A model generated the notes under the pieces. It was not told the origin of the DNA. It saw only the letters and a list, made by a program, of their open reading frames with translations, and did no database searches. DNA of 64,000 bases, from IMG/VR virus record IMGVR_UViG_3300011723_000019, positions 2,000 through 65,999 of that record; one strand, 5' to 3'. This stretch comes from a virus (taxonomy: Duplodnaviria; Caudoviricetes). Below are positions 3,437-21,065 of the stretch, in pieces. The first letter of the stretch is position 1, and each line of letters starts with the position of its first letter. A program made the translations under genes and the position numbers.

Positions 3437-3928
3437 TATTTTTTCAAAGATAATGGGAATTCAACACTCATTTTAATAACGCTTTTGCTATGGAGCGTTA
3501 TGTGAGACAATAAATTCCTCCATACTTACCGCAGGGTATAGATGGGGGAATTTTGAGTCTATGCGGAACATATCTTTGTTATGTTGATTAAATAATAACA
3601 CAAAATACTTAACACACTCAAAGATGCCAAATAAAGCAATAAGACAAAAAAACAACGAATTATTTCATCTTCTTGGTGTTTTATATTTAGAAGTAATACA
3701 AGGCAAAGCAGACCAAGAAGAAGCTAAGAAAAGACTAAAATATATCGATAAAAAACTGGCTAAAATTAAAAGTAAGCTTAGTAATACCAAATATTTATAA
3801 CATTGATAATACTCTGCTGGAAAGTCCACGTTGTCCACAGAACGAATGACAACCACGACTATTTTCCTTCACCAACCCTTCAAGGTACTTTTGTCTTGTT
3901 GATTAAGTAATATTAAACGATAATAGAA

Positions 3929-4105: not shown

Positions 4106-4109
4106 ACCT

Positions 4110-4373
4110 ATGAATGACATTGTATCAAACCCATTCCAAACGCTCTATGATGCTATTTTGGAATTAAAGCAGGAAATAACAGATTTAAAGCAATTGAACT
4201 CCGCAATTGACGATCGTCTAATGTCTCGCCAGGAAGCTGCAGCATATTTAAAAGTACATGTTGACACTGTCACAAGACTTGCTAGCTCTGGTCAATTAAA
4301 AAAATCGAACATAGGTCGGAACCTGAAATTTAGAAAGTCGGACTTAGATCAATATTTAAATAACAACGCATAA
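4110..4373 (+). CDS. Excisionase-family HTH protein
   Basis: LMSRQEAAAYLKVHVDTVTRLASSGQLKKSNIGRNLKFRKSDLDQYL, HTH_17-like. Confidence 0.85.
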   Translation: MNDIVSNPFQTLYDAILELKQEITDLKQLNSAIDDRLMSRQEAAAYLKVHVDTVTRLASSGQLKKSNIGRNLKFRKSDLDQYLNNNA

Positions 4374-4376
4374 AAA

Positions 4377-4406
4377 AAAAGCTACTTAATGCAGGTAGTA
4401 GCTTTT
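4377..4406. terminator. Bidirectional intrinsic terminator
   Basis: AAAAGCTACT-N10-AGTAGCTTTT. Confidence 0.7.
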
Positions 4407-4505
4407 GGACAAATTCTTTATTTACAATCTATAACAGTGCTAAGATAAAGATTTATGTCCAATTATGCAAATTATTGAATAACAAATGGATATAACTCAT
4501 GTATT

Positions 4506-7109
4506 ATGCAGAACGGTAATGTAGAACATACACAAAAAAGCATTACATACACACAAAACAACCTTGACAATAACAATATTTCTCTATCAGATATTTGGCC
4601 CCAAATAAAACTTTTGTTGGCCGATGGTATATCTTTAATTCCCGTTCGAGATAAAGATCACGGGGATAAAAAAGCTAAATCGCCGTGTATGGTTTCTTGG
4701 AAGCCCCAACAGACCGAACGCATGACCGAAGCTGAGTTATGGGAAGCAATGAACCAATATGATACTACAGCTATCGGGGTTGTGTGTGGTGAAATATCAG
4801 GCCGTTTAGAGCTTATAGATATTGATAGCAAGTATAAGCCCGGTATAGAAGCCTTGCTATTAAAGGATTTTGAAAAATTGTATCCTGAGATATTTCCTAA
4901 ATTACGTATTCATGCTACACCTTCAGGAGGTAGGCATGTTATGTACAGAATCGAAGATCATGACGTTGAAGGAAATTTAAAGCTCGCTGGACGTTTTGCG
5001 ACCGATGATGAAGTAAAAGACCAAATAAAGGCCGGAAAGAAACGCCCAACCAAAACGGTGAACTTCTTGGAGACGCGTGGTGAAGGTGGTTATTTCTTAT
5101 ACCCTCCATCCCTTGGCTATTCTGTAGTTCAAGATGTGCCAATCCCAGTAATTACATGGGAAGAGCGTTGTGGTTTAATCAATTTATGTCGGACGTACAA
5201 CGAAGTGGTTAAAGTGGCTCCTACACCGCAGCCAACAAAATCCCAAAACGACTATTATACAACCAATCCATTTGAGGATTTCAATAACCAGTGTGATCCG
5301 GTGCAGCTCATGGAATCGCAAGGTTGGAAGTTCCTTCGTGAAAATGCACGCTTTATTTGGTTTACACGTCCGGGTAAAGAGGATGGTGTTTCTGCAAGCT
5401 GGAACCATGAGAGACGTGTTTTCTTTGTTTTTACTAGCTCTACTGACCTTGACAGCAATCGCGGATACAATCCGGCATCTCTGCTTGCTGAGTTTGGATT
5501 TTCAGGGGATAAGAAAAAAGCATATAAGTATCTTGTTGACAACGGATATGGTAAAATAAAACCTGCTGTCGAAAAAAAGATTATTGCCCAAGCTGTAAAT
5601 AAAAAGATCAATGGCCCAGCCAATCTTAGTGAAGGAGGTAAAAACGAAATCAATACAGGTATTCAGCAAAGTATTATTGCCCATCCTTTTGGTGAGTTTT
5701 GGAAAATAGATGACGGCATAAGCATCCATTTGAGCGATGTTATTTTTGTCCTCAAAGGGTTGGGATTTTGTGACCATTTAGGCAGACTATGCAAATTCAA
5801 TTTTGACACCCGTATTGTGTCTAATTGCGAAGATGAACTAAATAACCTGATTGATAGTCTACGTGATTATGTGAAAATTGAAGATGGTAACCTGCTGGAC
5901 GATATATTCAATGCTATCGAAGAAAAGCTAAGCACAAAAGTAAAGTATATTAGGAGCCGACTACCAAGGCTGGATATGAAATATATATTAGCTGACAAAG
6001 CAAGCGTAGCTTATAAATGCTACACTAATTGTATCCTGGCAATATCTGCCGATGGAGTCAAACAGTTGGATTATGAATGGCTAAAAGGTCAGGATCTATT
6101 TGTTTTTGATTCTCAGATACAGCAGCGAGAATATTATTTCGATCAACCCAGTTCCGACCTTTATAAAACTTATCTAACCAACGCCACTAGGTACACAGAC
6201 CATGTGAAAAATTGCTTGGGCTACCTTGCCCACAAGAAAAAAGTAAAGGATAGAGCCTACCTTATAATATTGACGGAGGAAGTACCCAATATTAAAGACG
6301 GCGGAGGATCCGGAAAGAATGTATTTACAGGGTCTCTTAGCTGGACTACAACCGTGCATGAGGTTGATGGGGCTATAGTAAAAACTGACGAAAAGATGCT
6401 GCAGTCTTGGAACGGCCAAAATATTTTCGTTATGTCAGATCTTCGAAAGAATTTTTACTGGCCAATGCTTAAGAACCCTGTTTCTGATAACATGACTATC
6501 AAAAAGCTATACAAGGACGAAAGCAGTATACCATTCGAATTATCACCAAAGTTTGTTGCGTCTACTAATTTTTCTTATGATATATCCGACGGAGGGCTTA
6601 AGCGTAGAGCAAGGCCTATAGAGTTTACACCTTTTTACACAAAAAACGGCGGTGTCAAAAAAGTACACGGGAAAATGTTTCCTGACGATTTTACCGCAGA
6701 GGATTGGATGAGCTATGATGAAGTGATAATTGAATGTATCCAATATCATTTACAACAAGATGGACAGATCGACGAAGTTGTGTTGTCAGAAGGTGGGCAG
6801 TACAAACAATTAGTGTTAAAATATGGTGAGGACTTATTTGAGAGAATCAGTGACTTTACTGATGAACTAATCGACGATCGTCCGATGGGTTTCGTTAAAA
6901 ATCTAAAAGATGAGATAGCATCATACCTTGATCAGTTCCAAAATCGGTTCCAAAAAATTTCATCTTTTTCAATTTACGAACTCATTTCCTATTTCGCAGA
7001 GAAAAAAGGATTTGAATTTTCCTACAATAAACGCAAAGGGATGAACAATCAAAAAAATGAAAAAAATTGGATATATGAGTTTATAGAGCAAGATTTTTTG
7101 GAACCTTAA
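4506..7109 (+). CDS. Bifunctional primase-polymerase (Prim-Pol) fused to a P-loop helicase-like domain
   Basis: GVVCGEISGRLELIDID, TPSGGRHVMYR and ETRGEGGYFLYPPS Prim-Pol motifs; GGSGKN Walker A. Confidence 0.88.
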   Translation: MQNGNVEHTQKSITYTQNNLDNNNISLSDIWPQIKLLLADGISLIPVRDKDHGDKKAKSPCMVSWKPQQTERMTEAELWEAMNQYDTTAIGVVCGEISGRLELIDIDSKYKPGIEALLLKDFEKLYPEIFPKLRIHATPSGGRHVMYRIEDHDVEGNLKLAGRFATDDEVKDQIKAGKKRPTKTVNFLETRGEGGYFLYPPSLGYSVVQDVPIPVITWEERCGLINLCRTYNEVVKVAPTPQPTKSQNDYYTTNPFEDFNNQCDPVQLMESQGWKFLRENARFIWFTRPGKEDGVSASWNHERRVFFVFTSSTDLDSNRGYNPASLLAEFGFSGDKKKAYKYLVDNGYGKIKPAVEKKIIAQAVNKKINGPANLSEGGKNEINTGIQQSIIAHPFGEFWKIDDGISIHLSDVIFVLKGLGFCDHLGRLCKFNFDTRIVSNCEDELNNLIDSLRDYVKIEDGNLLDDIFNAIEEKLSTKVKYIRSRLPRLDMKYILADKASVAYKCYTNCILAISADGVKQLDYEWLKGQDLFVFDSQIQQREYYFDQPSSDLYKTYLTNATRYTDHVKNCLGYLAHKKKVKDRAYLIILTEEVPNIKDGGGSGKNVFTGSLSWTTTVHEVDGAIVKTDEKMLQSWNGQNIFVMSDLRKNFYWPMLKNPVSDNMTIKKLYKDESSIPFELSPKFVASTNFSYDISDGGLKRRARPIEFTPFYTKNGGVKKVHGKMFPDDFTAEDWMSYDEVIIECIQYHLQQDGQIDEVVLSEGGQYKQLVLKYGEDLFERISDFTDELIDDRPMGFVKNLKDEIASYLDQFQNRFQKISSFSIYELISYFAEKKGFEFSYNKRKGMNNQKNEKNWIYEFIEQDFLEP

Positions 7110-7346
7110 GCTTCTTTTGGAACAATTTGGTTTTTTTTTGGAACCTAAAAACAGCCTTTAAATATGTTTAAAGCAATATTTTTAGGATGGTTCCAAAAAA
7201 CCAAAGTATTTTCTTTAAAACTCAACAGAAAATAAAAAAAGAATGATGATTAAAATATACGCTAAAAACAGTGGGGTTAAAAACAAAATGATTTTTATTT
7301 CCTGTATAAAAAAAGTTTTAGGCGTTTTTTATAGATTTTTTGGAAC
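7098..7346. repeat. TTGGAAC iteron cluster with AT-rich core (candidate origin of element B)
   Basis: TTGGAAC at 7098, 7117, 7138 and 7340; GTTCCAA at 7190; core TTTAAATATGTTTAAAGCAATATTTT at 7157-7182; directly after the primase gene. Confidence 0.7.
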
Positions 7347-7354
7347 CAAGAAAA

Positions 7355-7726
7355 ATGACAGATAAACAAATGATCGAAATACTAAAAAAAAGACACCCTG
7401 ACGTCTATGCGAAAATAAAAGCGACAGATGTAGGGAGCATAAATAATACCCTTGTTGACCTAGCTTGGTTCTTCTCTGGTATGTATGAGCAGCGGACTAA
7501 TATATTTATTTGTGCCTGTTTATTGAAGTATTCTCCGAATACCATAGTAGACAATTCGAGGGTGACTCATGGCTTGGTTGGGGAAATGGCCCGTGTAAAA
7601 GGTGTTACTAAGGGAGCTATCAGCCAGAAAATAACTACAGCGGTATTTCAGTACCAGCATTATGCAGATATAGAAGAAAAAGCAAACAGAATATTGGATA
7701 AATTAAATAATGTGATTTATGAGTAG
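7355..7726 (+). CDS. Hypothetical protein with possible C-terminal HTH
   Basis: ATG 7355 is in frame with the track ORF; GEMARVKGVTKGAISQKI is HTH-like. Confidence 0.65.
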   Translation: MTDKQMIEILKKRHPDVYAKIKATDVGSINNTLVDLAWFFSGMYEQRTNIFICACLLKYSPNTIVDNSRVTHGLVGEMARVKGVTKGAISQKITTAVFQYQHYADIEEKANRILDKLNNVIYE

Positions 7727-8093
7727 TAAGAAAGTAAAAGTGAATACTGAAGATCAATGGAGCATTGATTTTATGAATAAGAAAGTTTCAGATGAAAGAA
7801 AGAAGATGCAGTCTTGCGAGGAAGGGTTTAAAAGATATGTTATGCGTAGAGCATTTTTTGTCTTAAATAAAAATTACCGATCATTTAATATGCTAAACGC
7901 AATAGCGAATAAAGCAATAGAGAATCTTATCTACAATTATGATTATCAGCTTCCTTTCAATCAAGATCATGTTGATAGATCAATAGTTGAAGTGTTTCTA
8001 AAATATGGTTCAAAGTATTGGATAAAGAAAACCGGATGGTTCGGCAAAGACAGAAGAAAAGACACTTATATCGAAAATTTCAAAGGTGAATAG
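7719..8093 (+). CDS. Hypothetical protein (124 aa)
   Basis: Start overlaps the previous stop. Confidence 0.75.
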   Translation: MSSKKVKVNTEDQWSIDFMNKKVSDERKKMQSCEEGFKRYVMRRAFFVLNKNYRSFNMLNAIANKAIENLIYNYDYQLPFNQDHVDRSIVEVFLKYGSKYWIKKTGWFGKDRRKDTYIENFKGE

Positions 8094-8131
8094 AGGTAGT
8101 AATTTTTGAAAACAACAAAGAAATACAGAAT

Positions 8132-8446
8132 ATGGCAGTAAAAGGAAAAACTAACAATCCCAATGGAAGACCAAAGGGAGTTCCCAACAAAGTGACAACG
8201 GATTTGAGAGGTGGAATTGACGCATTTCTGAAAAACAAATGGAACGAAGTTTATGAAATTTGGGATAGATTGGATGACAAAGATAAAATCCTGTTTATGG
8301 ACAAAATGATGAAGTACGCTATTCCAACATTACAATCTACAACAATTGATGCCAAGGTTGAATCAAATTCAAAATTGGAAAAGTTGAATGCTACGCAATT
8401 AAACACATTGATAGATCAAATTTTGGAAGAAGATGAGAATACATGA
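8132..8446 (+). CDS. Terminase small-subunit-like protein
   Basis: N-terminal GKTNNPNGRPKGVPNK motif common in phage TerS-like proteins; helical C-terminus. Confidence 0.55.
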   Translation: MAVKGKTNNPNGRPKGVPNKVTTDLRGGIDAFLKNKWNEVYEIWDRLDDKDKILFMDKMMKYAIPTLQSTTIDAKVESNSKLEKLNATQLNTLIDQILEEDENT

Positions 8447-8867
8447 AGAAATTAGTAATGGCGCAGGGATTTCTCCTGAAGAAATAAAGCGCGGAACTAT
8501 AGAAAGTATCCGCAAAACAGAAGATGGTTCATTTGTCTATCACTTTTATAGATTGCCCGGCTTTTGCACTATTTTAGGATTCGATGATAAGCTGATTGGC
8601 TGGCATGCGGACAATGACTCCCCTGCTTACATTGATTTTAAAAAAGAGTTCTTAATCAATTTAGATATCGAAGCATTGAAAGTATTCGGCAAGAACAAAG
8701 AAAAAGATTTGGATATCGTGTTTGACGGAGCATCGTACATTGACTTAAATTTGATAAATCCACCGCATCGAGCCCCTATCGTATTAGTAATGTTATATAG
8801 CGAGGATGCTAAAATGATCGCTAGAAAGCTTGGCTATCCAGTTATTAATCATGCACAATTGACATAA
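8433..8867 (+). CDS. Hypothetical protein (144 aa)
   Basis: Overlaps neighbours in an operon. Confidence 0.75.
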   Translation: MRIHEEISNGAGISPEEIKRGTIESIRKTEDGSFVYHFYRLPGFCTILGFDDKLIGWHADNDSPAYIDFKKEFLINLDIEALKVFGKNKEKDLDIVFDGASYIDLNLINPPHRAPIVLVMLYSEDAKMIARKLGYPVINHAQLT

Positions 8868-9082
8868 TGAGAACAATTAACCCGAAAACGGAAGAATATA
8901 AGCAATGCTTAATTTCTTTGATTGAATTTGGCTTCACAGAGCCATTAAGAAAGATTAGATCATTTCCTGATCAACCAATTCAAATAATCAATGAAGGGGA
9001 AAGTCTGGAAATAAAAAATCATCCTTTGAATTTTGTAAAATACAATAGTGATAATGGTTTTGTATTGTTTCCCATGCCATGA
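8867..9082 (+). CDS. Hypothetical protein (71 aa)
   Basis: TAATG stop-start overlap. Confidence 0.7.
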   Translation: MRTINPKTEEYKQCLISLIEFGFTEPLRKIRSFPDQPIQIINEGESLEIKNHPLNFVKYNSDNGFVLFPMP

Positions 9083-9360
9083 ATAGCCGAGATATAGATT
9101 TTGACAAATGCAAATGGTATGCCGGTGGTTGTATCATTGAGCAAGGCACTGATAATTATCGTTTCTTCTTGGAATTACTTATCAAGAATAGGCATATAGA
9201 GACCTTACAGGAGATTCGCGATCGAGGGTACCCCGAAATCCATCTTATTCTAAATGCTGCTTCTTACTTGAGATATAGGGCGGACAACGAAGAAAAGAAA
9301 GTATTCGGGTTACCAACAAGCAATTATATTAGCGATAATATTAAGAAATTGACAGATTGA
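9079..9360 (+). CDS. Hypothetical protein (93 aa)
   Basis: ATGA overlap with the previous gene. Confidence 0.7.
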   Translation: MNSRDIDFDKCKWYAGGCIIEQGTDNYRFFLELLIKNRHIETLQEIRDRGYPEIHLILNAASYLRYRADNEEKKVFGLPTSNYISDNIKKLTD

Positions 9361-9391
9361 ATTTTCCAACATCATAACGCGTGTGACGCTT

Positions 9392-9425
9392 ATAGGGTGT
9401 CGTGAAATACGATCCCCTATTTTTT
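9392..9425 (+). terminator. Intrinsic terminator
   Basis: ATAGGG..GTCGT-GAAAT-ACGAT..CCCTAT followed by a T-run. Confidence 0.6.
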
Positions 9426-9438
9426 AAAATGTTAATAT

Positions 9439-9461
9439 CTAAACTTTATGTAAAGGTTTAG
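9439..9461. promoter_or_regulatory. Quasi-palindromic operator copy 1, CTAAACTTTA-N3-AAAGGTTTAG
   Basis: 20/23 identical to 13070-13092; lies between a terminator and an operon start. Confidence 0.65.
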
Positions 9462-9515
9462 ATATTGTATTATACTATATTATAATATAAGATATTATGT
9501 ATTTACCTTAGCTAT

Positions 9516-9782
9516 ATGGAACAGAAGTTTTATAGCACCAAAGAAGCCAGTCGCATGCTTAACATTGAGCGCACGACGCTTTACGCATGGAGGAACAAAG
9601 GTAAAATCAAAATGGAGAAGTTTGACAGTCAATATTACATAAGCGCAGACGAAATCAAGCCTATCTTAGAAGAAAGGATTAAAACCGGCAAAACTCAAAT
9701 CTCAACAGATTTTCCTGCGGTTAGTCATCAGCCTATTTTGATCGAAATGCCACGAAGAAAATATGATTCCGAAACCCGATAG
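9516..9782 (+). CDS. MerR/Xis-type HTH DNA-binding protein
   Basis: FYSTKEASRMLNIERTTLYAWRNKGKI. Confidence 0.8.
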   Translation: MEQKFYSTKEASRMLNIERTTLYAWRNKGKIKMEKFDSQYYISADEIKPILEERIKTGKTQISTDFPAVSHQPILIEMPRRKYDSETR

Positions 9783-9869
9783 GCGTACTAAAAACATCGT
9801 TTAATTTACTTTATTACATTTATCATTTATTTGTTATCGGTTATTGTTATCGGTTTAAGTGAAAAAGCA

Positions 9870-10247
9870 ATGAATAGTGAACTTTTAGAGCTGGTCAAGC
9901 AGCAAGAAAAACAGATCGGGCAATTGAAGAAATTCATTTGGGATATCTCCGTCAATCCCGACTTATTGAAGGATCAACGATTGATGAATATTTTAATAGA
10001 TATTGATTTCAATAACTCGTCCGATCCTACATTAACCGATTATACCATTTCCAAAATAATAGAACTTGAAAAACGCCTTTTTCAGATATGGGAATTATTA
10101 GACCAGTCAAGGCAACTCATTAACCGACCATGGAAAGTTTTGTTTCCCGGCAAAGGGTTTAGGGCCTGTTACAATGCTGCGGTTGATCAGCATGCTTGCG
10201 AATGGGTAGACGATAATGGGAAAGTATTAGAAAGTCAAGAGCAATAG
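9870..10247 (+). CDS. Hypothetical protein
   Basis: In-frame ATG 9870 preferred to TTG 9831. Confidence 0.65.
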   Translation: MNSELLELVKQQEKQIGQLKKFIWDISVNPDLLKDQRLMNILIDIDFNNSSDPTLTDYTISKIIELEKRLFQIWELLDQSRQLINRPWKVLFPGKGFRACYNAAVDQHACEWVDDNGKVLESQEQ

Positions 10248-10251
10248 TGAT

Positions 10252-10920
10252 ATGCAACGAGCAGCAATAGCAGCGACCTTTGTTGACGAGCCGGTGATCA
10301 TTGGCTCCGTACAGCTTACCGATACCGAGGGCAACGAGTATCGGCATGAGTTAGTATTGGAGTCAATATCACTGGGCTGTATGGAGCGTATATGCTTACT
10401 TTTGGATCCAGTATCACCTTTAATCAAGACGTTGGCATCCAGCACCACTGAATTAGACGTTCGGAATGCGTCTATTGAGATTTTGATAAATTCGTTGTAC
10501 CGTCTTTCTAAGGTTATCGCAGCAGCGTGTCAGAACTCCCCAAAGCCTATTGATCCTATAATCGTCGATGCGGTATATACTCAACTCAGCTTGCCGGATA
10601 TCTTAATTGCTCTGAGGGAAATACTGGCTAAGGTTAGTTTTCGGGAGCTATCGGAGCATTTCCAGTTCAAGCATTCAAAAGATGCCACGGCTTACCCGGG
10701 GTCAAACTCTTTTTGGGCTTTATTAGTTAATGCGATGGTATCCTTCAAAGGGTGTAATGAATATGATCTTAAATGGAACATGTCTTATACGAATTTGTTG
10801 ATGTATTGCTCGGTATTGTCCGCTTCGCGCCCCGAAGATTCCGGCGGTGGTAAACCTGAAGAAGGTAAAGAGGTTGATATGTGGGATTTGTTTAACGGAA
10901 TGAGTAAAGAAAGTGATTAA
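10252..10920 (+). CDS. Putative tail assembly chaperone (gpGT-like)
   Basis: Lies upstream of TMP; C-terminal NSFWA...WNMSYTNLLMY resembles gpT-like pieces of Bacteroidota prophages (from memory). Confidence 0.4.
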   Translation: MQRAAIAATFVDEPVIIGSVQLTDTEGNEYRHELVLESISLGCMERICLLLDPVSPLIKTLASSTTELDVRNASIEILINSLYRLSKVIAAACQNSPKPIDPIIVDAVYTQLSLPDILIALREILAKVSFRELSEHFQFKHSKDATAYPGSNSFWALLVNAMVSFKGCNEYDLKWNMSYTNLLMYCSVLSASRPEDSGGGKPEEGKEVDMWDLFNGMSKESD

Positions 10921-10922
10921 CA

Positions 10923-11324
10923 ATGGAATTAGGAAAGATAAATATAAAATCAAAATATAGTGTGATTGAGTGGTTTCGTGTTCGTTTAGGGTGGAGAAAG
11001 AGCATAACGCTTAATCTCCGCCCTTACTCTGGAAAAACTACTCTAGAGATTTGCCAATTGGTAAACGCTGGTATTGTATTGAAAAGCAAAGAGACGAATG
11101 AGTTAATGACAGTCATTGATGGTAATTTGGCAGGATACGTTGATATGGTTGTCACAGCTTGCGCGGTTCCCTCTTACTTAACAAAACAAGTCGCAAGCGG
11201 TATTGTTGAAACCTGGACAGTAGAGCAAATAAAAGATGCGGTAGGCCAAGTTTACCAAAACATTGATTTTCAAAGCGCGTTGGAAATAATGTCTATTATG
11301 GGACAAATACGGTTTGACGATTAA
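10923..11324 (+). CDS. Putative tail assembly chaperone (gpG-like)
   Basis: Helical 133-aa protein with a pattern similar to the N-terminal part of 10252. Confidence 0.35.
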   Translation: MELGKINIKSKYSVIEWFRVRLGWRKSITLNLRPYSGKTTLEICQLVNAGIVLKSKETNELMTVIDGNLAGYVDMVVTACAVPSYLTKQVASGIVETWTVEQIKDAVGQVYQNIDFQSALEIMSIMGQIRFDD

Positions 11325-11335
11325 ACCGCGCCCAT

Positions 11336-11365
11336 AGGGTAGCTATTGTTTGGCTACCCTTTTTT
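11336..11365 (+). terminator. Intrinsic terminator
   Basis: AGGGTAGC-N9-GCTACCCT followed by a T-run. Confidence 0.75.
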
Positions 11366-11408
11366 CTTTCTCCTAACTTTTCCTTAAGTTTGTTTTAAAC
11401 GATTTTTT

Positions 11409-11945
11409 ATGAAAAGATTAATCTATGTGCTGTTTGCTTTTGCATCCATTGGAGCAGTTAAAGCTCAAAAGTTAGATAAAAAGAATATAGAGCCATTTAC
11501 TAACGAATCCGTTACGTCAACTAAATATGAAACGCTTTTTTCTGACAGTAAGTTGTTCTTATCATCCTCTGTTGCATTCAAATTCTCGCGAATTAATAAT
11601 GATGTTTCATTATCAATAAAAGTCATCATCGATGATGGAAAAGATTTTGAAGTCCGTACAGATCAACCCTTTTTCTTGAAGTTTTCTAACGGTGAAGTCA
11701 TCGAGCTATACCCAAGGGAGAATATTTATTCAAGTATCGGAAAAGGTGCTGTAGGTTTGCGCCTGAGCGGCGTTCCTGGAGCAGAGATTGAGTATGATTT
11801 ATCAAAAGAAAATGTCAACACAATACTTAAAAATGACTTAATATCTGCAAGACTTAATAATTCCTACAAAACTTTAGAGAATTTGGATATCAAAAAGAAA
11901 AATTCTCTTTTGTTTAGAAAAGCTATAGAGCTAGTAACTAGGTAG
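11409..11945 (+). CDS. Secreted hypothetical protein (moron-like)
   Basis: Signal peptide MKRLIYVLFAFASIGAVKA-Q. Confidence 0.75.
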   Translation: MKRLIYVLFAFASIGAVKAQKLDKKNIEPFTNESVTSTKYETLFSDSKLFLSSSVAFKFSRINNDVSLSIKVIIDDGKDFEVRTDQPFFLKFSNGEVIELYPRENIYSSIGKGAVGLRLSGVPGAEIEYDLSKENVNTILKNDLISARLNNSYKTLENLDIKKKNSLLFRKAIELVTR

Positions 11946-12025
11946 ATGCGTTAAATACATGTACAGCTGTATAATTTGTTATATTTCAATACGGTTTTCC
12001 CTGTTTTTCGATAAAAAAAATATTA

Positions 12026-12033
12026 TATATTTG
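12026..12033 (+). promoter_or_regulatory. Bacteroidota -7 promoter element TATATTTG
   Basis: Matches TAnnTTTG, 45 nt upstream of the structured leader. Confidence 0.5.
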
Positions 12034-12078
12034 CATCAAATTTATTTGTTATGTGTTGCTGAATTTTGTATATTAGTA

Positions 12079-12249
12079 ATGCCAAACAAAATAAAGTCAG
12101 AAGAGCTTTAAAAATTTCTTCAAAACAGACATATATACCATTACTAGGTATTGGTAAAATATACAGACCTTGCTCTGTCCGTGTGGTTACAATTTCCAGC
12201 CTTGTGCTGACTTTGTTTTGTTTGGCGACCCATACGGCAGGGCTTTTTT
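12079..12249 (+). ncRNA. c4/CI-like antisense RNA leader with a 10-codon uORF (MPNKIKSEEL)
   Basis: 12081-12100 pairs with 12207-12226 (20 bp, one G-U); 12172-12186 pairs with 12230-12243, followed by T6; uORF 12079-12111. Confidence 0.65.
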
Positions 12250-12271
12250 GTTGCCGGATAATTTGTCTAAA

Positions 12272-12562
12272 ATGCCAAACAAAACAACACCAAATGAAGC
12301 GCCAAATTGCGTAAACCTCTCACTAACTCACGACGAAGTTACCCAGCTTCGTGATCTTATCTACAAAGCTCACTGGTATAACAATGAATGCAATTATGAT
12401 AATGACAATGACATTATCTACACGTTAATTGAAGAAAGAGACGCTAATAATCGTGATCAGATCGACGCTGCAATAACGATGCTTAATAAGATAGGTTATC
12501 TTTCCAGTTTCCTAACTGACCTATGGAATCGTCTATTAGAATTAGAAAAGAAATGTGTATAA
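12272..12562 (+). CDS. Hypothetical protein (MPNKTTP..., 96 aa)
   Basis: In-frame ATG 12272 just after the leader terminator. Confidence 0.7.
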   Translation: MPNKTTPNEAPNCVNLSLTHDEVTQLRDLIYKAHWYNNECNYDNDNDIIYTLIEERDANNRDQIDAAITMLNKIGYLSSFLTDLWNRLLELEKKCV

Positions 12563-12615
12563 ACCAAGCATAGACCGGATAGAAAAAATATTAATTAATC
12601 AAAATTGTTATAAAA

Positions 12616-13011
12616 ATGCCAAACAAAACAATTACCCCCAGCAACACTAATAATTTAGATATCGCCATTAAAAATGCAAATGGTAGAAGAACAGTTTACA
12701 TCTTTGATGTGTACGGCGAAAGTATGGATAACGGAAGCATTTATAATGCTATACCGAATGGCTCAACAATTCACTGTACAAAAATACCAAAAGATGATTG
12801 GAATGATCAGTTGCCAAACCTAATTCATTACTCTTGTGTCTTCGTGATGAAAGACGGCGAGATATTTGTTAAATCCCTCCTATCTATTTCTGACAATTCA
12901 GATCGACTCACTTTGCGCAGCTTAAATAAGAACAAATTCTTCTTCCCTGATTTCGATATTGAATTTGATAATATTGAACGGTTGTACGTCGTAGATAAGC
13001 GTGTAATTTAG
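12616..13011 (+). CDS. Stand-alone S24 (LexA/CI/UmuD-type) peptidase domain without a DNA-binding domain
   Basis: VYGESM (catalytic Ser) and FVKSL (catalytic Lys), then LTLRSLN. Confidence 0.75.
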   Translation: MPNKTITPSNTNNLDIAIKNANGRRTVYIFDVYGESMDNGSIYNAIPNGSTIHCTKIPKDDWNDQLPNLIHYSCVFVMKDGEIFVKSLLSISDNSDRLTLRSLNKNKFFFPDFDIEFDNIERLYVVDKRVI

Positions 13012-13032
13012 TATTAATCAGGCTTTTTTGCT

Positions 13033-13064
13033 AAAGGATGCCCTAATTGAGAGCATCCTTTTTT
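13033..13064 (+). terminator. Intrinsic terminator
   Basis: AAAGGATGC-N11-GCATCCTTT followed by a T-run. Confidence 0.75.
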
Positions 13065-13069
13065 ATTTT

Positions 13070-13092
13070 CTAAACTTTAATAAAAGGTTTAG
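13070..13092. promoter_or_regulatory. Quasi-palindromic operator copy 2, upstream of the TMP operon
   Basis: CTAAACTTTA-ATA-AAAGGTTTAG; matches 9439-9461. Confidence 0.65.
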
Positions 13093-13168
13093 GTAATATA
13101 AATCAATATAATGTAATATAGGCTTTTATAAAATTATTTTTACTGATAAATATTGAGCAACAAATATT

Positions 13169-16100
13169 ATGTCAGAAATTAATTACAAAGTCACAGTTGA
13201 TGATAGCGAGGCCAAAAAGAAGCTAAATGATCTTTGGGCATTCTTAAAAAGTGGGGAATCGAAGACGAAAAGTATCATTGATTTCGATAAGACGGAAAAG
13301 GGGTTAAAAAGGGTACTTGATAATCTCGAAAAGGTAAAAAGCAAAACCGCATCCATAGGCGGACTAAACGTTGACGGATCGGGTGATGCAAAAAGGTCAA
13401 CGGGTGCTATCCGTCAATTAAGTGATGAGCAAAAGAAGCTCAAACAAGCCCAATTAGATAATATTGAATCTATTCGCCGCCTACGTGAGGAACGCTCGAA
13501 GGAAATAGGCGAACTAAATCTTTTAAAGCAAATTGAACAAGAGCATAAGGCAACCTTAGCAGAAAAGAAGGCCGCCGCGCAAGATCTGACCCAAACAGAA
13601 AAGGAATTAAATATCCAATATAAACAAGGTCAGATTGAAATGCAGGAGTATAACCGACTGCTTAAAGAACAAGCCGAGGAACGTCGTAAAGCAACTGCAG
13701 CGGAACGAGAAGCAACAAAAGCGGTAAAGGAAGCTGAGAAAGCCCGTAAGGACGCTGAACGTGAAGCTGAAAAAGCCGCTAAAGCTGCAGAAAAGAGAAG
13801 AAAGCAGCTTGAAAAGGAAAGTAGCGAGTATTACCAGCTCAATAAAGCCCTAGGAAGTGTCCGTAAAGAAGCTAAAGATGTCTTGGCCGAAATGTTCAAG
13901 TTGGAGCGCCAGGGGCTTAAGAATAGTGCAGCGTATGAGCTGTTGGAAAACCAGTCAAAAGACCTTGTTGCCCAAACTCAGTACCTAGATAAGGGTATTA
14001 AAAAGATTGACGCAAGCCTTGGTCTTCATCAACGCAATGTCGGAAACTATGCTGCTGCTTTAGATAACATTATTCCAATTGTTGGCCGTGTAAATAGTCA
14101 GCTTGCGATGTTCGGGACATCGATCGATGATATTGCTGGTAAACCAGGGATATTTAAAGAAATTGGAGCCGGTATTACTAGTGCATTCAAAAACTTGGTG
14201 GCGTTTGTCTCTACTCCAATTGGAGCCGCAGTTGCTACCATTGGCGGACTGTTCGCACTATTCCAGGCTAACAAAGATACTGTTATCCAATTTGATGACG
14301 GCCTAAAGAGCGTTAGTAAAACAACAGGATTATCCGGCAAGGCGCTTCAACAGTATTCGGATGACATAATACAGCTTTCGCGAGCTTTGAAAACGGTAGA
14401 ATCAAAGCAACTCCTTGAATATTCACAGGTTGCGGGACAACTAGGAGTTAAAGGCAGGGACAATCTATTAGCATTTTCGGATGCTTTAGCAAAACTTGAA
14501 ACCGCATCAGATATACGCGGAGAGGAAGGCGCGACAAAAATAGCTAGGCTCCTTACCCTTACTGATGGCGGCGTCCAGAATGTTAAAGAATTTGGAGACG
14601 AGATTGTAAACCTTGGTAACAACTTCGCGGCCACCGAATCTGAGATTTTGACGAATGCCGAAGCTATAGGGCAAAACGTTGGTTTATATAAGATCGGCCG
14701 TAAAGACGTACTTGCATACGCTACAGCAACGAAAGCAGTAGGTCTAGAAGCGGAGGTTGTCGGTTCAACTTTCTCACGTACACTCGGACAGTTCGAGAAA
14801 ATGACTAGATCTGGAAAAGGTGTAAATGATTTATTAAAAATTATCGGAGGCACTCAATCTGATTTACAAAAGCGTTTTAAAACTGATGCCAGCGGTGTCT
14901 TCATGGATTACATTCGAGGTTTGAACAAAATTAACCAAGCAGGTGGCTCCGTTAATGAAGCACTGGAACGTACTGGTATTATAGCAGTTCGGGATCAAAG
15001 AGTTATTGCGTCTTTAGCATCAACTGGTTATGACACTTTAACGAATGCGATGAACACCGCCAAGAACGCTAGCGGCGCTATGCAGGCGGAGTTCGAAACA
15101 GGGGCAAGTAAATTGGTTAATCAGATCAAGCGAATCAATATTGCCTGGGATAACTTGGTATTGTCTATAGAAAATGGATCTGGAGCAATTGGAAAAACCT
15201 CAGTCGCAATAATCGGTTATGTAGCTGATATGCTGGAAGCATTCAATAAGATCGCAGACTCTGCAAACATCTTTGAAGGTGTTTTTCGATATATATCAAC
15301 TGGTTTCAAAATGACGGTTCCGGGTCGTGCCGTAGATTGGGCAACTGGCGGTGGATTTGATAAAGTTTCAAATTGGATTTTCCCTAACGACTCTAAAAAG
15401 GCATCAGAAGATAATTCTAAGTTTTTCGCTGAGTTCTCACAAAAGACTAGAGCCGAGCAATTAAAAATGATTGCTAATCAGGAAGCATTGATAAAAAAGC
15501 AAAATTCCCTCAATAAAGCATTTGCTAATCCAGTATTGGAGGAGAATTTAAAGAAAATGAGGAGCCTTTTGAAGACTGATGTTGATACTTCTAAAATTGA
15601 TTTTGGTGTTTCAGATAAAGATAAAAGAAAGTCGGAACGAGCAGCGGAACAGTTGCGCCAAGCCACCGAGCGTCAACGCTCGCTTCAACTAGAAATCGAC
15701 AAGATCAACGAAACGGCATCTAGGAACCAACTTTCCCGTGATGAATCCGAAGTTGCATCTGTAAAGGATAAATATGCGAAAATACGGGAAGAAGTTGACA
15801 AGTTTTATAGAAACCCCAAGAACAAAGGTTTAAAAGTAAATACGTCTGGGCTAGTCGCAAGTGAAAATTTCGAAGTAAGTGAAGCAGAGATTAGACAAAA
15901 TACGAAGGCAACGGAAACTCAGTTTGATGCTCAGAAAAAGTTCTTGGACGAATATAATGCTTATGCGGAACAAACTTCAAAGGCTGCAGCTGACAAGCGG
16001 TATGCAAAAGAGTTAGCTATTTTCAAAGATTATGAGCAAAATGTAAGAGCTACTTACGATAGCTTGGTCACAAAGAAAAAGACAGCAGACCTCGCACAGT

Positions 16101-17959
16101 ATGTCAGCACCATGAAGTTTACTCAGGCCGAGGAAGAAGCGTTGAAGAAATTGAGCATCCGTATCGCTGAAATAGATCAAAATAAGCGTCAACGAGAAAG
16201 CAAAGGATTGATCGAAGCGCTAAGAGCCGCACAAACTGTAAATGACAAATTGGTTGCAATCGAGCAAGATTATCAAGATAAAATCAAATCCCTGCGTGAT
16301 AATAACGAGTTAACTCCTGATCGCGAAAAACTGCTTAATAAACAAAAGGGACGCAGCACCTCTCAGGTAGCCGTTGAAGAACTGACTGGCTCTATTGAAT
16401 GGGAAACGTTGTTTTCCGGTATGGACGAGATGGGAGTCAAACAAATTGAAAATCTTATTTCAACAATTGAAACTAAGTTCGACGATCTGAAAGGCAAGTT
16501 CGATCCAATCGACCTTCAAAACTTGAAACGTCAATTGCGAGAAGCTCAAAACGTCCTAATTGAGAAAAATCCGTTTACACAACTGGCATCATCAATTAAG
16601 GTAATTATGAACAATGCCGGTAACGATTCGGCAGAAGCTGCTGAGAAGACAAAAACGGCATGGGTCAACCTTTCTAAATCGACAAAAAACAGTTTTGACT
16701 TCATATCTAATGCTGTTGAATCTGCATCAGTTTTAAAAGATGCTATAGGGGAAGTCGGGGCGACTGCGTTATCTTCATTGACAGCTCTATCAGTAGCAGC
16801 GGTTGCGGTTACCTCCGCTATAAAAACAGCGGAGAGAGCGTCTGTAATCCTTGCTGTTATTCAGGCCGCATTAGTTGTTGTCCAGTCTTTATTTTCTTTT
16901 TTGAGCAGCGCGTCTAAGAAACGCAATGAGGAATTGAAAAAAGAGCAAGATTATTACAATACACTATCGGAGACATTCGATATCCTAATTGATAAACAAA
17001 AGGAACTGTTTTCGCAGAAATCAGGCAAAGACTCTATGGATGCTTACAAAGAAGCTATTGATCTAGTAAATTCAAAGCTGATCGCTAATAGAAAAAGTCT
17101 TGAAGCTTGGTTTTCCCAAGGCGCCAGTTTATTTAAGCACTCTAATTGGTATAACTATGACAAAGAGCTGGGTAATGTATTGAGTCGGCAAAAACTTTTG
17201 AATATGACTAGTCAAGAATGGTCGGATCTGCTATTAAAACAGCCAACATTGTGGGCTAGACTGCCGGAAGAAGTGCGCAAGTATGGGCAAAGTATGATAG
17301 ATGCAAAAGGCCAAACAAAAGAATTGACCGACGCCTTACAAGAAGCTTTGTCCGGTATTTCTTTAGATGATATACGCGGAGAATTTGAAAGTTTATTTTC
17401 TCAGGCTGATTTAACTTTTGGAGATATATCCGACTCATTCTATAAGCATATGCAAAAAGCAGTGATGCGGTTGGTACAAGACGGTAAGATGACTCAAAGT
17501 ATTCAAGAATGGTATGATAAAGTTACTGACTCATTATCGGATGGTACCTTGACGGAAAGTGAGTCAGAAAACTTGAAAGCTCAATACCAAGCTATTGCTG
17601 AAGCTGGCAATAAGCGGTACCAGGAGATAATGGGTTTAATAGGATATGAAGGTGATACCAAATCGTCAGGTCTTAAAGGATCTATTCAAAAGGAAATGAC
17701 GGAAGCAACCGCAAGCGAGTTGACTGGTCTTTTTCGATCAACATTTGAACTTTCGAAGCGATCCTTACAAGAATCACAAAGCCAAACTATATCAATGGGT
17801 AAGATAGTTGAAATGACCAGCAACGGGTTAGTCGTACTTAACAATATCCAAAATAATACTGCAGCAACGGTTGTTGAACTACAGAACGCAGTAAGCGAGT
17901 TGAAGAATATCAATAAAAATACATCACCTCAATCAATGAGGGCATACGGAGGAGGATAA
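13169..17959 (+). CDS. Tail tape measure protein (TP901-type core), 1596 aa
   Basis: Long coiled coil; VSKTTGLSG...QVAGQLGV...NLGNNFAATESEI core; followed by tail-tip genes. Confidence 0.9.
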   Translation: MSEINYKVTVDDSEAKKKLNDLWAFLKSGESKTKSIIDFDKTEKGLKRVLDNLEKVKSKTASIGGLNVDGSGDAKRSTGAIRQLSDEQKKLKQAQLDNIESIRRLREERSKEIGELNLLKQIEQEHKATLAEKKAAAQDLTQTEKELNIQYKQGQIEMQEYNRLLKEQAEERRKATAAEREATKAVKEAEKARKDAEREAEKAAKAAEKRRKQLEKESSEYYQLNKALGSVRKEAKDVLAEMFKLERQGLKNSAAYELLENQSKDLVAQTQYLDKGIKKIDASLGLHQRNVGNYAAALDNIIPIVGRVNSQLAMFGTSIDDIAGKPGIFKEIGAGITSAFKNLVAFVSTPIGAAVATIGGLFALFQANKDTVIQFDDGLKSVSKTTGLSGKALQQYSDDIIQLSRALKTVESKQLLEYSQVAGQLGVKGRDNLLAFSDALAKLETASDIRGEEGATKIARLLTLTDGGVQNVKEFGDEIVNLGNNFAATESEILTNAEAIGQNVGLYKIGRKDVLAYATATKAVGLEAEVVGSTFSRTLGQFEKMTRSGKGVNDLLKIIGGTQSDLQKRFKTDASGVFMDYIRGLNKINQAGGSVNEALERTGIIAVRDQRVIASLASTGYDTLTNAMNTAKNASGAMQAEFETGASKLVNQIKRINIAWDNLVLSIENGSGAIGKTSVAIIGYVADMLEAFNKIADSANIFEGVFRYISTGFKMTVPGRAVDWATGGGFDKVSNWIFPNDSKKASEDNSKFFAEFSQKTRAEQLKMIANQEALIKKQNSLNKAFANPVLEENLKKMRSLLKTDVDTSKIDFGVSDKDKRKSERAAEQLRQATERQRSLQLEIDKINETASRNQLSRDESEVASVKDKYAKIREEVDKFYRNPKNKGLKVNTSGLVASENFEVSEAEIRQNTKATETQFDAQKKFLDEYNAYAEQTSKAAADKRYAKELAIFKDYEQNVRATYDSLVTKKKTADLAQYVSTMKFTQAEEEALKKLSIRIAEIDQNKRQRESKGLIEALRAAQTVNDKLVAIEQDYQDKIKSLRDNNELTPDREKLLNKQKGRSTSQVAVEELTGSIEWETLFSGMDEMGVKQIENLISTIETKFDDLKGKFDPIDLQNLKRQLREAQNVLIEKNPFTQLASSIKVIMNNAGNDSAEAAEKTKTAWVNLSKSTKNSFDFISNAVESASVLKDAIGEVGATALSSLTALSVAAVAVTSAIKTAERASVILAVIQAALVVVQSLFSFLSSASKKRNEELKKEQDYYNTLSETFDILIDKQKELFSQKSGKDSMDAYKEAIDLVNSKLIANRKSLEAWFSQGASLFKHSNWYNYDKELGNVLSRQKLLNMTSQEWSDLLLKQPTLWARLPEEVRKYGQSMIDAKGQTKELTDALQEALSGISLDDIRGEFESLFSQADLTFGDISDSFYKHMQKAVMRLVQDGKMTQSIQEWYDKVTDSLSDGTLTESESENLKAQYQAIAEAGNKRYQEIMGLIGYEGDTKSSGLKGSIQKEMTEATASELTGLFRSTFELSKRSLQESQSQTISMGKIVEMTSNGLVVLNNIQNNTAATVVELQNAVSELKNINKNTSPQSMRAYGGG

Positions 17960-17960
17960 T

Positions 17961-18473
17961 ATGGGCTTTGCAATTGATAACAAAAATACAGCTACAGAAT
18001 TTAAGTTGTTTTTTAAACGCGGTGTTTGGAGCGAGTTATTGAAGTTTCCTAAACCCAAACAAAGGGCCTTTTATGATTGGCCGGATGAACACGGAAAGGA
18101 CTATGACGATTTTTCGCCAACGGTGTATGAACCGCTACAGTATAATATCGGGTGCTACCTATCTTCAACTTCCCTTACTCGATTACAAGAGCAAAGGGAG
18201 GTTTTGCTGAATATTCTTAAAAAACCTGAGGGCTTCAACTTAAGAGTTGATGCGTTGGGGCGATCATTCGCGCTGCGGTATATCGGTTCGCCTGATCTAA
18301 GCATTTTTAATCCCCGTAGAACTACGGGTATAATTTACACTGAATTTAACCTGACATTGGAAAATAACTTCGCACCTGTCGGTGTAGATTTCTACCTGGC
18401 AGATATTAACGGTTTAATTCTGAGCTATCCTAGTAAACCTATACAATTCGAGCAACAAAAACAAGTATTTTAA
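17961..18473 (+). CDS. Distal-tail (Dit)-like protein
   Basis: Directly after TMP; LLKFPKPK..YDWPDEHG resembles Bacteroidota prophage tail proteins. Confidence 0.55.
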   Translation: MGFAIDNKNTATEFKLFFKRGVWSELLKFPKPKQRAFYDWPDEHGKDYDDFSPTVYEPLQYNIGCYLSSTSLTRLQEQREVLLNILKKPEGFNLRVDALGRSFALRYIGSPDLSIFNPRRTTGIIYTEFNLTLENNFAPVGVDFYLADINGLILSYPSKPIQFEQQKQVF

Positions 18474-21064
18474 TGAAGATCCAAATAAAAAGAAAAGGCA
18501 TCAATACAATAGAGATACCATTGAATGCCGGAATATATGCCAACAAAGTAATGGCCGAGCAATTGTTATCGTTTAGTTTCCAAACTTCAAAACTACTCGA
18601 CCTGGTGGTCGGTGATACTTTGCTGTACAAGGGCGAGGAATACATGTTGAACAATACCCCAAGCATTAGGAAGACAAGTCGTTTTTCATTCGAATATGAT
18701 TTTGCTTTTGAGGGGCCTCGACACTTATTATCGAAATTATTCATTACACATCTTGGCGCTCGTAAGTTCTCGTTTTCAGGGACGGCTCAGGAGTGGTTAA
18801 ATTTTATTGTCGATTGCGTCAATAGCAAATCTTCAGGTTGGACTGTGGGCCAGTTTGAAGATATGGGCCGAGTAACGATTGAATTTGATTCGACTTATAT
18901 TCTTGATGCTCTTACAATGGTAGCAGAAGCGATGAAAGGCGAATGGGGCGTGAAAGGGAAAGTAATATCTCTTAAGAAAACAGTCGGTACCGCAAGAGCT
19001 TTGACGTTCAAATATGGTAAAGGTGAAGGACTATATAGTTTAACCCGTAAAATCATAGATGATAAGAAAATAGTTACCCGGGCGTATGCTCGGGGCGGCT
19101 CCAATAATCTTCCGGCTGGAATGAGGGATTATTTTACTATTGATGGATATGTTGAAAAGAACGTATCAATTTACGGTCTTACAGAAGGAGAATTTATCGA
19201 CGAAGAAATATATCCTAAAAGAACCGGCACCGTTACTGCTGTGTCGCAAATTAACAAGCAGCAATTCACCATTTCCGATAATTCAATTGACTTTGATCTT
19301 AACGCTCAAAGAGTGAATGGGGTAACACCGCAAATCGTCTTTAAGTCTGGGTTATTGGAAGGAAATACTTTTGAAATAGAATCTTATAGTCCTGCAAATA
19401 AAACAATTCGTTTCAAGGCTAATGACGAGGGTAACGGAATTTTGTTCCCTACAGAGGTTGTACATGCGGAGATCGGCGATAAATACACATTGATTGGTAT
19501 TCGTATGCCACAATCATATATTGATGCTGCGGTCACAGAGTTAACGGCAAAACGTCAAGAGTACTTAGATAGCAACAGTGTTCCTCGAGTGGTGTATGAC
19601 CTTGAAATTGATATTATACAGTTAAAGAAATCGAATGAAATGCTAGAAGCTGGCGACATAATCAAAGTTATAGATATAGACTAGGGGATTGATTCAAATA
19701 TTAGGATCACTGAGGTAAACTATCCGGCACACTATCCTGATGTGCTTGAAAATGGAATGCAATTCAATGCAGTCATAGGGAATGAAGTCACCTATACATT
19801 ATCGCAAAAGATCCAAAATGACATCAAGAAAAATCAGGAGGTTATCACCCAGTACAATAAAGCAAGTTGGGAACGCGACCGACGGAATATCCAGGCATTG
19901 ACAGAATTCCGTTCGAAAGTACTTGATCCGGACGGGAACCTTGAGCAGGCAATGATGCAGGCGATCGCTGGTTGGTTTGGTACCGAATCCATGTATTATG
20001 ATTTGGATGATGTGCAGATGGTTGTTAATGCAGGTGGTGACCCGAACAGCTTTGCTATGACTGCAGGTAGATTGATCCACAAGGTATTCAAGATTGAGGG
20101 ATTAGGCAATATTTGGTTACTCGATCCTTTTAGTATTACAGGTTTGGATCCACTGGAAAGCTATTATCTATCCGCTAAGGTGAGCCGCACCGCGCTAACC
20201 GGTGAATGGGTGTTATCATCTGAGCAAATGGGAACAGAGTCGGAGCCTAGTTATTGGCATTTCAATTTTGGGGTACTTTCAAGTGTGATTGAAGGCGAAC
20301 GATCTTTCAAGCCTACGAAAGGTTTTACTTTGATTAGTGGTGGAAGTATCGAGACCGATGTTATCAGCGCTTACATGATTAATGTTAACCGTTTATTCGC
20401 CCAGGTTGTGACAGTGGGAAGCGACGGCTATAACAATGCAGGTATTTCGGGGCTTGCTGATGGCAAAATCTATGACGATAATTGGAATATTATTGGTGAT
20501 GATCCAAATAAGTCTGTCAGATTCTGGGCCGGATCGGATGAGAACGAGAAGCACAAAGCGCCATTCAATGTTTTGAACGACGGAAGCATGAGAGCTGAGA
20601 ATGGAAAAATTGGTAATTTCAATATGGACGCCAACAAGTTGTATATCGGGCAAAAAGATACATGGCAGCCGTTTGGCAAATCAGTATTCCTGTATGGCGA
20701 TTACTTTTTAATGCGTGACAACGGAGCCGTTGCGGGGCAAAGACGGGAGTTTTCATGGAACCTATATAAGAATCAAATTGCAGTTAATGAAGATAACGCG
20801 GTTTCCATTTTTAACACTATGAACAATTTTGATCCTTTGTTTCCAAACACCAATGTGGCGTTGGAACTTGAAGCTAGTGGATCGAATGAAAATTACGCAT
20901 TGAGCATAAATAGTGGAGATATCCGTGTAAAAGGGAAAAAAGGTTATACCGGAAAGATCACTTTAGCAAACACCGCATCGAGTACGGTTTATTATCATTT
21001 CAATTACATTAACGGCTTGCTGGTTGATTATGTTTCAAACGGCAGTGCAACAAATCCATTTTAA
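18473..21064 (+). pseudogene. Tail-tip/hub (Tal-like) protein interrupted by one in-frame TAG at 19682-19684
   Basis: The frame continues through TAG (DID*GIDSNIRITEVNYP) into ORF 19742..21064; KYGKGEGLYSL..IVTRAYARGG tail motif. Confidence 0.75.
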
Positions 21065-21065
21065 T

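Follow-up and report, generated by a model that had tools for sequence, protein, structure and literature searches.

A candidate RNA-based anti-immunity switch, with covarying antisense and target sequences on an uncatalogued scaffold, in a Bacteroidota provirus

The window considered here is a 64,000-nucleotide (nt) stretch of Caudoviricetes DNA that makes up nearly all of the 66-kb IMG/VR provirus record IMGVR_UViG_3300011723_000019; close homologues of one of its genes, referred to below as gene 1, carry Sphingobacterium names. The element in question is a cassette at approximately 10923-13168, which comprises a gene of 133 amino acids (aa), a lipoprotein-like gene, an RNA region, gene 1 and gene 2, and is flanked by a 222-aa gene and a 1596-aa tape-measure gene. 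The RNA region contains an antisense segment that is complementary to three sites on the same strand (T1, T2 and T3); on comparison of related sequences, it is close to certain that this pairing is under selection, and not the product of chance. The features of the cassette that are needed below are as follows.

12026..12033, + strand: probable leader promoter, TATATTTG, approximately 45 nt before T1, in a block that is kept in close relatives though its flanks diverge.
12081..12100, + strand: T1, the upstream target or self-target (analogue of seqA or a1b1), which forms 20 bp with the antisense segment including one G-U pair and overlaps a 10-codon open reading frame (ORF) at 12079-12111.
12100..12121, + strand: leader hairpin Ha (GAAGAG...TTCTTC).
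12138..12154, + strand: leader hairpin H0 (CCATTAC-TAG-GTATTGG), directly before the small RNA (sRNA).
12172..12249, + strand: structured sRNA core in the consensus fold, with closing stem, inner hairpin P2 (12197-12209), antisense loop and U6 (12244-12249).
12207..12226, + strand: antisense (specificity) segment, CTGACTTTGTTTTGTTTGGC, recognised by complementarity and covariation.
12272..12562, + strand: gene 1, 96 aa with three predicted helices; T2 (12274-12287) runs from the G of its ATG.
12616..13011, + strand: gene 2, 131 aa, similar to the S24 / lambda-CI C-terminal domain (CTD); T3 is at 12618-12631.
13033..13069, + strand: hairpin and U-run (-15.5 kcal/mol) that close the cassette before the tape-measure gene.

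The positions and complementarity of the antisense segment and its targets, as proposed in an initial annotation of this DNA, were borne out by the sequence. T1 departs from the reverse complement of the antisense segment by a single C-to-T difference, which is read as a G-U pair, and T2 and T3 both consist of GCCAAACAAAACAA, a perfect 14-nt complement of the segment; as the same annotation had claimed, each target begins at the G of an ATG, these start codons lying at 12079 (the 10-codon ORF), 12272 (gene 1) and 12616 (gene 2). With two or fewer mismatches allowed, the 14-mer occurs nine times in the window against 1.22 ± 0.96 times in shuffled sequences, and none of 100 shuffles reaches nine copies. 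The antisense segment is predicted to be largely accessible in the free sRNA, with a mean unpaired probability of approximately 0.6.

Contigs that encode homologues of gene 1 supplied seven further distinct loci, and four classes are distinguished by the core of the target.

Class A (window, L016, L026 and L027): target core GCCAAACAAAACAA.
Class B (L017-L024 and L028): target core GCTAAAACTAACAA.
Class C (L025): target core GCGAAACTCAACA(T).
Class D (L029 and L031): target core GCCAAATCAAACAA; the antisense segment has GG in place of the TG of class A.

Relative to class A, positions 3, 7, 8 and 9 are changed in class B, positions 3, 8 and 9 in class C, and position 8 in class D; every one of these changes is shared by the antisense segment and all three targets, a four-way compensation by which pairing is kept. 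It is this covariation across relatives that marks the pairing as real rather than fortuitous. Cognate duplexes among the close relatives reach 21-22 bp at T1 (-31 to -32 kcal/mol) and 14-16 bp at T2 and T3 (-20 to -23 kcal/mol), in comparison to 4-12 bp at most for non-cognate combinations. The N-terminal peptides of the controlled genes vary with the class (MPNK, MLKL, MRNS), which places the selection on the nucleotides and not on the peptide. In the leader alignment the core of the T1:antisense helix has 13 pairs, 100% of them paired, and 4 of the 13 are changed on both sides; for leader and sRNA taken together, changes on both sides are seen in 12 pairs, a number that none of 500 shuffles attains (4.5 ± 1.6), and the paired fraction of cells is 94%, compared with 37-46% in slid controls.

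The same arrangement extends to more distant loci. A covariance model of the sRNA scaffold, R1, has its only match in the window at 12160-12251 (115 bits) and also matches a copy in one related 50-kb provirus; a wider search with a motif composed of the conserved 3' arm and the U-run led to ten viral contigs, and R1 scores of 55-111 bits were obtained for nine of them. This brings the total to 17 distinct loci and at least 11 specificity classes, in all of which the targets have changed in step with the antisense segment, without loss of pairing; natural variants of specificity that carry compensatory changes, the feature known from the heteroimmunity of P1 and P7, are therefore present. Likewise, the functional hallmark of c4/CI-type RNAs, complementary sites for the antisense segment both upstream and downstream on the same strand, is found in 17 of 17 loci. 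In the wider loci the antisense segment pairs with the upstream site over 17-21 bp, departures being mostly G-U, and T2 comprises 10-15 nt of the first downstream gene, counted from the G of its ATG; each of the 11 antisense segments pairs best with its cognate T2 (mean -16.4 vs -7.1 kcal/mol). A T3 on the second cistron is confined to the lineage of the window element, the wider family having T1 and T2 only. Two class D loci on a 434-kb contig (L031, 444-955; L052, 12739-13250) carry T2 on a different, 81-aa gene, which is followed by the gene 1 homologue with an overlapping stop and start, ATGCTGA; this overlap suggests translational coupling in place of a separate target. Other routes to relatives were unproductive: the exact 20-mer has no match in viral contigs, blastn against a phage collection found none, protein-pattern scans with the S24 gene, the upstream 222-aa gene and gene 1 found none in viral, genome and metagenome collections, from which near relatives may be absent, and target-like sites in five related proviruses were limited to chance-level matches.

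Covariation of this kind would also be expected if the repeats were sites for one DNA-binding protein. T1 is a 20-bp inverted repeat of the antisense segment at a distance of 106 bp, T2 and T3 are direct repeats, and invertible segments are common in Bacteroidota, so that the 14-20 bp sequences could in principle be operators, or recombination sites of an invertible segment. Such a DNA-level role is nevertheless extremely improbable given the nature of the mismatches: T1 departs from the perfect complement at 1, 0, 5 and 2 positions in classes A-D, and 8 of 8 of these departures are transitions that give G-U on the + strand, where the other strand would give A-C. That they always take this form argues for pairing of RNA on the + strand, and against DNA sites. 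The antisense copy, furthermore, is part of a stem-loop that covaries and terminates in a U-run; the position of T2 and T3 is constant, at +3 of start codons; the orientation is the same in 17 of 17 distinct loci, and no recombinase gene is found next to the cassette.

The scaffold that presents the antisense segment is itself well defined. Folding of 12160-12252 recovered the closed structure ending in U6 that had been described in the initial annotation: a 14-bp closing stem (12172-12186 with 12230-12243) encloses the inner hairpin and an antisense loop that is largely open, and T6 comes next at 12244-12249, with a minimum free energy (MFE) of -29.9 kcal/mol and a z-score of -3.3 (0 of 200 shuffles fold equally well). 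Across 15 loci, pairing holds in 95.6% of scaffold cells, compared with 33-45% in slid controls, and five pairs are changed on both sides. The closing stem with its U-run is probably an intrinsic terminator, which would make it the predicted 3' end of the sRNA; the mature RNA of c4/CI-type systems, ~77-80 nt in length, is freed from its leader by RNase P or other processing and acts in trans. A different interpretation of 12170-12271, as a coding N-terminal extension of gene 1, was rejected on account of indels, the RNA-type covariation and the U-run.

Upstream of the sRNA, both leader hairpins are kept across the alignment. Ha (helix 2) has 92.6% of cells paired and one pair changed on both sides; 4 of the 7 pairs of H0 have changes in both partners, as in the CTGATAC/GTGTCAG of L031, and this hairpin is possibly a processing or structural element. 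The sequence TATATTTG is one that we take to match the Bacteroidota -7 promoter box (TAnnTTTG), its role as a promoter being read from that consensus. A second type of leader start (…GTTTTGCATTTTTGAAATG…) is seen upstream of T1 in L049, L050, L052 and L048, where T1 follows a TAGTTTTG-like box by approximately 10 nt; transcripts of these loci may be nearly leaderless at T1.

The role of T1 is where the present analysis departs from the initial annotation, which had placed three translation starts under the control of one RNA; two starts and one leader site are a better description. The short ORF at T1 is not conserved, having 10, 26 or 5 codons in close relatives, and its start codon is TTG or GTG in some loci and is replaced by ATA or TAG in L043 and L044. 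A T1:antisense helix of 17-21 bp is part of the leader MFE structure in 17 of 17 distinct loci; in the MFE of the window leader 0 of the 14 closing-stem pairs are formed, and the printed folds of relatives are likewise without the stem. If T1 is masked, the closing stem and U-run become the MFE structure, the two window energies being -51.6 vs -44.9 kcal/mol. A full T1 duplex and the terminator stem should be unable to coexist, as the helices cross and just 3 nt lie between the antisense segment and the 3' arm. Because the short ORF is unconserved and the folds alternate, T1 looks like a self-target of the seqA/a1b1 type, which would act in cis as an antiterminator, rather than a conserved upstream ORF.

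Conserved alternation between a T1:antisense fold and a terminator fold is also what a purely cis-acting attenuator leader would show, flipped by a ribosome on the short ORF, by a protein or by temperature and giving no functional diffusible sRNA. T1 keeps ATG, GTG or TTG in most loci, as ribosome sensing would require, and trans action of the sRNA is deduced rather than observed. We nonetheless regard a leader of this kind as unlikely. One antisense segment cannot hold T1, T2 and T3 of a single molecule simultaneously, and yet T2, and in the window lineage T3 at approximately 390 nt downstream, covary as strictly as T1; in a cis-only leader their pairing would have no role, T2 and T3 being free when T1 holds the antisense segment and untranscribed when the terminator forms. 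L043 and L044 are without a start codon at T1, so that sensing by a ribosome cannot be general.

Gene 1, the first of the controlled genes, gave no indication of function in Pfam, PHROGs or the ESM Atlas, or by Foldseek with the three-helix model. Members of its family lie downstream of the sRNA in five of nine wider loci, in four of them as the T2-bearing first gene and in L052 as the second gene. The most constant target is the start of a small protein, and the genes in the same position in P1 (icd) and P4 (kil) are host-killing or division-blocking; both points favor a module similar to a type I toxin-antitoxin or a kil-control system, in which gene 1, or the first gene of relatives, would be harmful and the antisense RNA its antidote. 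This arrangement is thought quite improbable, and equally little weight is given to the purpose that it would imply, stabilisation or abortive infection in place of immunity control: gene 1 is predicted to be a soluble three-helix protein of 96 aa and not a short hydrophobic peptide, and a same-strand upstream sRNA with a self-target and downstream antirepressors fits operons of the immI type, not classical type I loci. A toxin-antitoxin-like function would in part overlap with the anti-immunity switch that is set out below and is not exclusive of it.

Gene 2 resembles the C-terminal part of a phage repressor. Its match to Pfam S24 (PF00717) is below the cut-off (19.6 bits vs a gathering cut-off of 23.3; E = 7e-4), and it matches the PHROG 4 repressor at 5e-6; relatives found with HMMER are the C-terminal halves of regulators of the XRE family of approximately 250 aa, to which gene 2 aligns from residue ~150, its own first ~14 residues being disordered. 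Ser36 is nearly invariant, as is Lys86, so that the serine of G-x-S-M and the lysine of the S24 dyad are kept. The predicted structure (predicted local distance difference test score, 84) has the lambda CI CTD as its best match (1kca_A; template modelling score, 0.72), followed by LexA CTDs; a sequence-profile search of the PDB gave no match, where the fold search did. Gene 2 lacks the N-terminal DNA-binding domain of the LexA/CI repressors; it could plausibly serve as an antirepressor, either dominant-negative or as a sensor. The downstream cargo of relatives consists of antirepressors of well-known types, namely AntA with ANT (L048, 4 nt after the preceding gene, and L049), Rha with ANT (L050) and KilA-N (L031/L052), and a headless CI-like S24 domain in the slot usually taken by an antirepressor suggests a new kind of antirepressor. 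A 272-aa ORF on the minus strand was considered as a CI-like repressor and rejected, as it is a DEDDh exonuclease.

From these elements the following mechanism is proposed. A leader transcript that begins near 12040 would carry T1, two hairpins and a stem-loop RNA of approximately 80 nt, with the antisense segment in its loop and an intrinsic terminator at its end. When no free sRNA is present, T1 would pair with the antisense segment in cis over 20 bp and exclude the closing stem, resulting in read-through; T2 and T3 would then be free, allowing for expression of gene 1 and the S24-domain gene. In an established element, free sRNA would pair in trans with T1 of nascent leaders, so that the terminator forms and more sRNA is made; on any read-through mRNA it would also pair with every coding region over its initial 14 nt, counted from +3, and block initiation. 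Translation starts in Bacteroidota depend on an unstructured region and not on a Shine-Dalgarno sequence, which makes a block by pairing from +3 plausible. The variable antisense and target sequences would set specificity, as a form of heteroimmunity, and the controlled genes would be anti-immunity effectors; the headless CI-C-terminal-like domain of the window may poison or sense a repressor of the S24 type. That the locus is an RNA-based anti-immunity switch of the P1 c4 / P4 CI / N15 CA type, on an uncatalogued scaffold and with the mechanism as described, is considered the probable explanation; the assignment of its biological role to anti-immunity or to the control of induction is more tentative, and falls somewhat short of being likely.

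Several points weigh against this explanation. Covariation is proof of pairing and does not distinguish action in cis from action in trans, and the argument from MFE structures ignores the kinetics of co-transcriptional folding. The simple form of the model uses one sRNA for each sRNA made, which means that net accumulation needs processing or spontaneous termination. Pairing at T2 extends over just 10-12 nt in some classes. The window has no recognised antirepressor after the sRNA, and gene 1 has no detectable function; in L049 and L031 a gap separates the antirepressor-like gene from the small genes, and it may possess its own promoter. A partner repressor of the S24 type was found neither in the record nor in five related proviruses, by a search so insensitive that it missed gene 2 itself.

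The surroundings of the cassette bear on its origin. Tape-measure relatives L003-L015 have no cassette within 4 kb, and their tape-measure gene is directly adjoined by the homologue of the 222-aa gene, which makes the cassette an insertion relative to those phages; in one tape-measure relative, G002, the module lies 4.6 kb upstream of the tape-measure gene. A larger element can be delimited at approximately 3900-21600 (1170-19157 in L033/L034), with two HTH_17 genes, a Prim-Pol gene, small genes, the cassette, the tape-measure gene, and tail-tip-like genes of 170, 844 and 160 aa; no head or packaging genes were seen in it. In other Sphingobacterium genomes the element occurs without a neighboring complete prophage and with a YceI gene directly after it, and in L037 an integrase is located just upstream of the helix-turn-helix (HTH) genes. 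The tail-tip gene is a single 844-aa ORF in relatives (L033, 16175-18709) and is split in the window (18473-21064) into 403 aa and 440 aa. The remainder of the window, 22252-64000, is a separate and apparently complete prophage, which contains an HTH repressor region, DEDDh exonuclease, DnaG-type primase, head protease, terminase, a second tape-measure-like gene and an integrase (62801-64000); its terminase is not found in those 50-kb proviruses that have the first tape-measure gene in common with the window.

The element looks like a satellite or a conserved defective element. The Prim-Pol, tape-measure and tail-tip genes, the lack of recognisable head genes and the stand-alone occurrence in other Sphingobacterium genomes would fit a P4-like phage satellite of 18 kb with an RNA immunity factor, which would gate a headless CI-C-terminal domain able to sense the S24-type repressor of a helper prophage or to inactivate it; this extension is speculative and is thought doubtful. 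If it were true, the antisense classes would amount to a heteroimmunity code among competing Bacteroidota satellites and phages. One additional site in the window has the form of a target.

3626..3639, + strand: possible fourth target, GCCAAATAAAGCAA, at the G of the ATG of a 58-aa ORF that begins MPNK (3624-3800); 14 bp with the antisense segment, including two G-U pairs.

This candidate is weak, and relatives do not support it: L038/L039, which have the same type of sRNA, read ATGACAAAT, a mismatch, at an ATGACA start, and the 58-aa ORF is absent from L033 and L037. The region of this ORF (3560-3930) is an apparent insertion between two copies of a promoter-like block (TTTTGTCTTGTTGATT...), ahead of the Xis-like HTH genes.

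Comparison with catalogued RNAs shows how far the likeness to known immunity systems extends. A cmscan of the whole window against Rfam at the gathering score gave no match, and 11900-12700 gave none at E ≤ 10, including to C4 (RF01695), c4-a1b1, IsrK and sRNA-Xcc1; the comparison with C4-family models in Infernal, which the initial annotation had named as a check of its c4/CI analogue, is thus negative even at this permissive threshold. The divergent members L047, L045, L031 and L016 likewise showed nothing at the positions of their sRNAs at E ≤ 1. The analogy stands with respect to geometry, covariation and the antirepressors of relatives, and fails with respect to membership of C4 or any other Rfam family; as judged from these comparisons, the module is one that works like P1 c4, P4 CI and N15 CA but belongs to an uncatalogued RNA family.

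To our knowledge, RNA-based phage immunity and anti-immunity have been described almost exclusively in Proteobacteria and on a single Rfam scaffold, and the present loci would place the same c4/CI logic on an unrelated scaffold in phages of Bacteroidota. The matched guide and target classes, at least 11 in number, form a natural set of compensatory mutations; an sRNA fused to its own terminator, with an upstream target as antiterminator, would be a compact and testable bistable switch. The system would also exemplify a translation block by pairing from +3 of the ORF in a phylum without Shine-Dalgarno-dependent initiation, and could provide orthogonal, programmable RNA regulators for Bacteroidota genetics.

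Of the known systems, sRNA-Xcc1 (RF02221) and other terminator-ended c4-like leader RNAs share with the present module a self-pairing leader, flanking boxes, a terminator and a guide segment, specific to the phage, with a match to the beginning of the following gene; they differ in that sRNA-Xcc1 is not matched here at E ≤ 10. The anti-immunity locus of N15, in which CA RNA controls icd-antA-antB (Ravin et al. 1999, as summarised in PMC3632133), is similar in that a small leader RNA controls an operon of small proteins and an antirepressor; CA RNA is however built on a proteobacterial scaffold of the C4 type, to which no homology was detected here.

In P4, processing of the leader yields CI RNA, which causes premature termination by pairing with seqA on its upstream side and seqC on its downstream side (PMC4825925); the segment of CI RNA involved is seqB (Sabbattini et al. 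1995; Briani et al. 2000, as summarised in PMC4825925). The module described here likewise has one antisense segment with one upstream and one or more downstream targets on the same transcript, an outcome tied to transcription termination and an RNA made from the leader that it would regulate, and its element may be satellite-like, as P4 is. It differs from P4 in that the terminator is intrinsic and part of the sRNA, that the upstream site is a cis antiterminator in the proposed model, and that the controlled genes are not replication genes; sequence and structure do not match.

RNAs structurally similar to P4 CI are used by P1, P7 and N15 (PMC4825925; PMC3632133), and it is with immI of P1 and P7 that the comparison is most extensive. 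There, c4 RNA acts on the sites a1b1 (upstream) and a2b2 (at the start of icd) and controls icd-ant (Citron & Schuster 1990, as summarised in PMC3632133). Several features differ: the antisense segment is contiguous here, whereas c4 has two loops (a' and b'); the 3' end apparently results from an intrinsic terminator that the sRNA forms with its closing stem; pairing has its first position at +3 of the ORF, in contrast to P1, where it covers the Shine-Dalgarno site; and in the window each of two cistrons has its own target, in a host belonging to the Bacteroidota. The organization is otherwise alike, with a same-strand sRNA inside the leader of the operon that it would control, complementary sites upstream as well as where the first downstream gene begins, and antirepressors at the end of the operon in relatives; in both systems specificity is defined by compensatory natural variants, which in immI separate P1 from P7 and here make up at least 11 classes.

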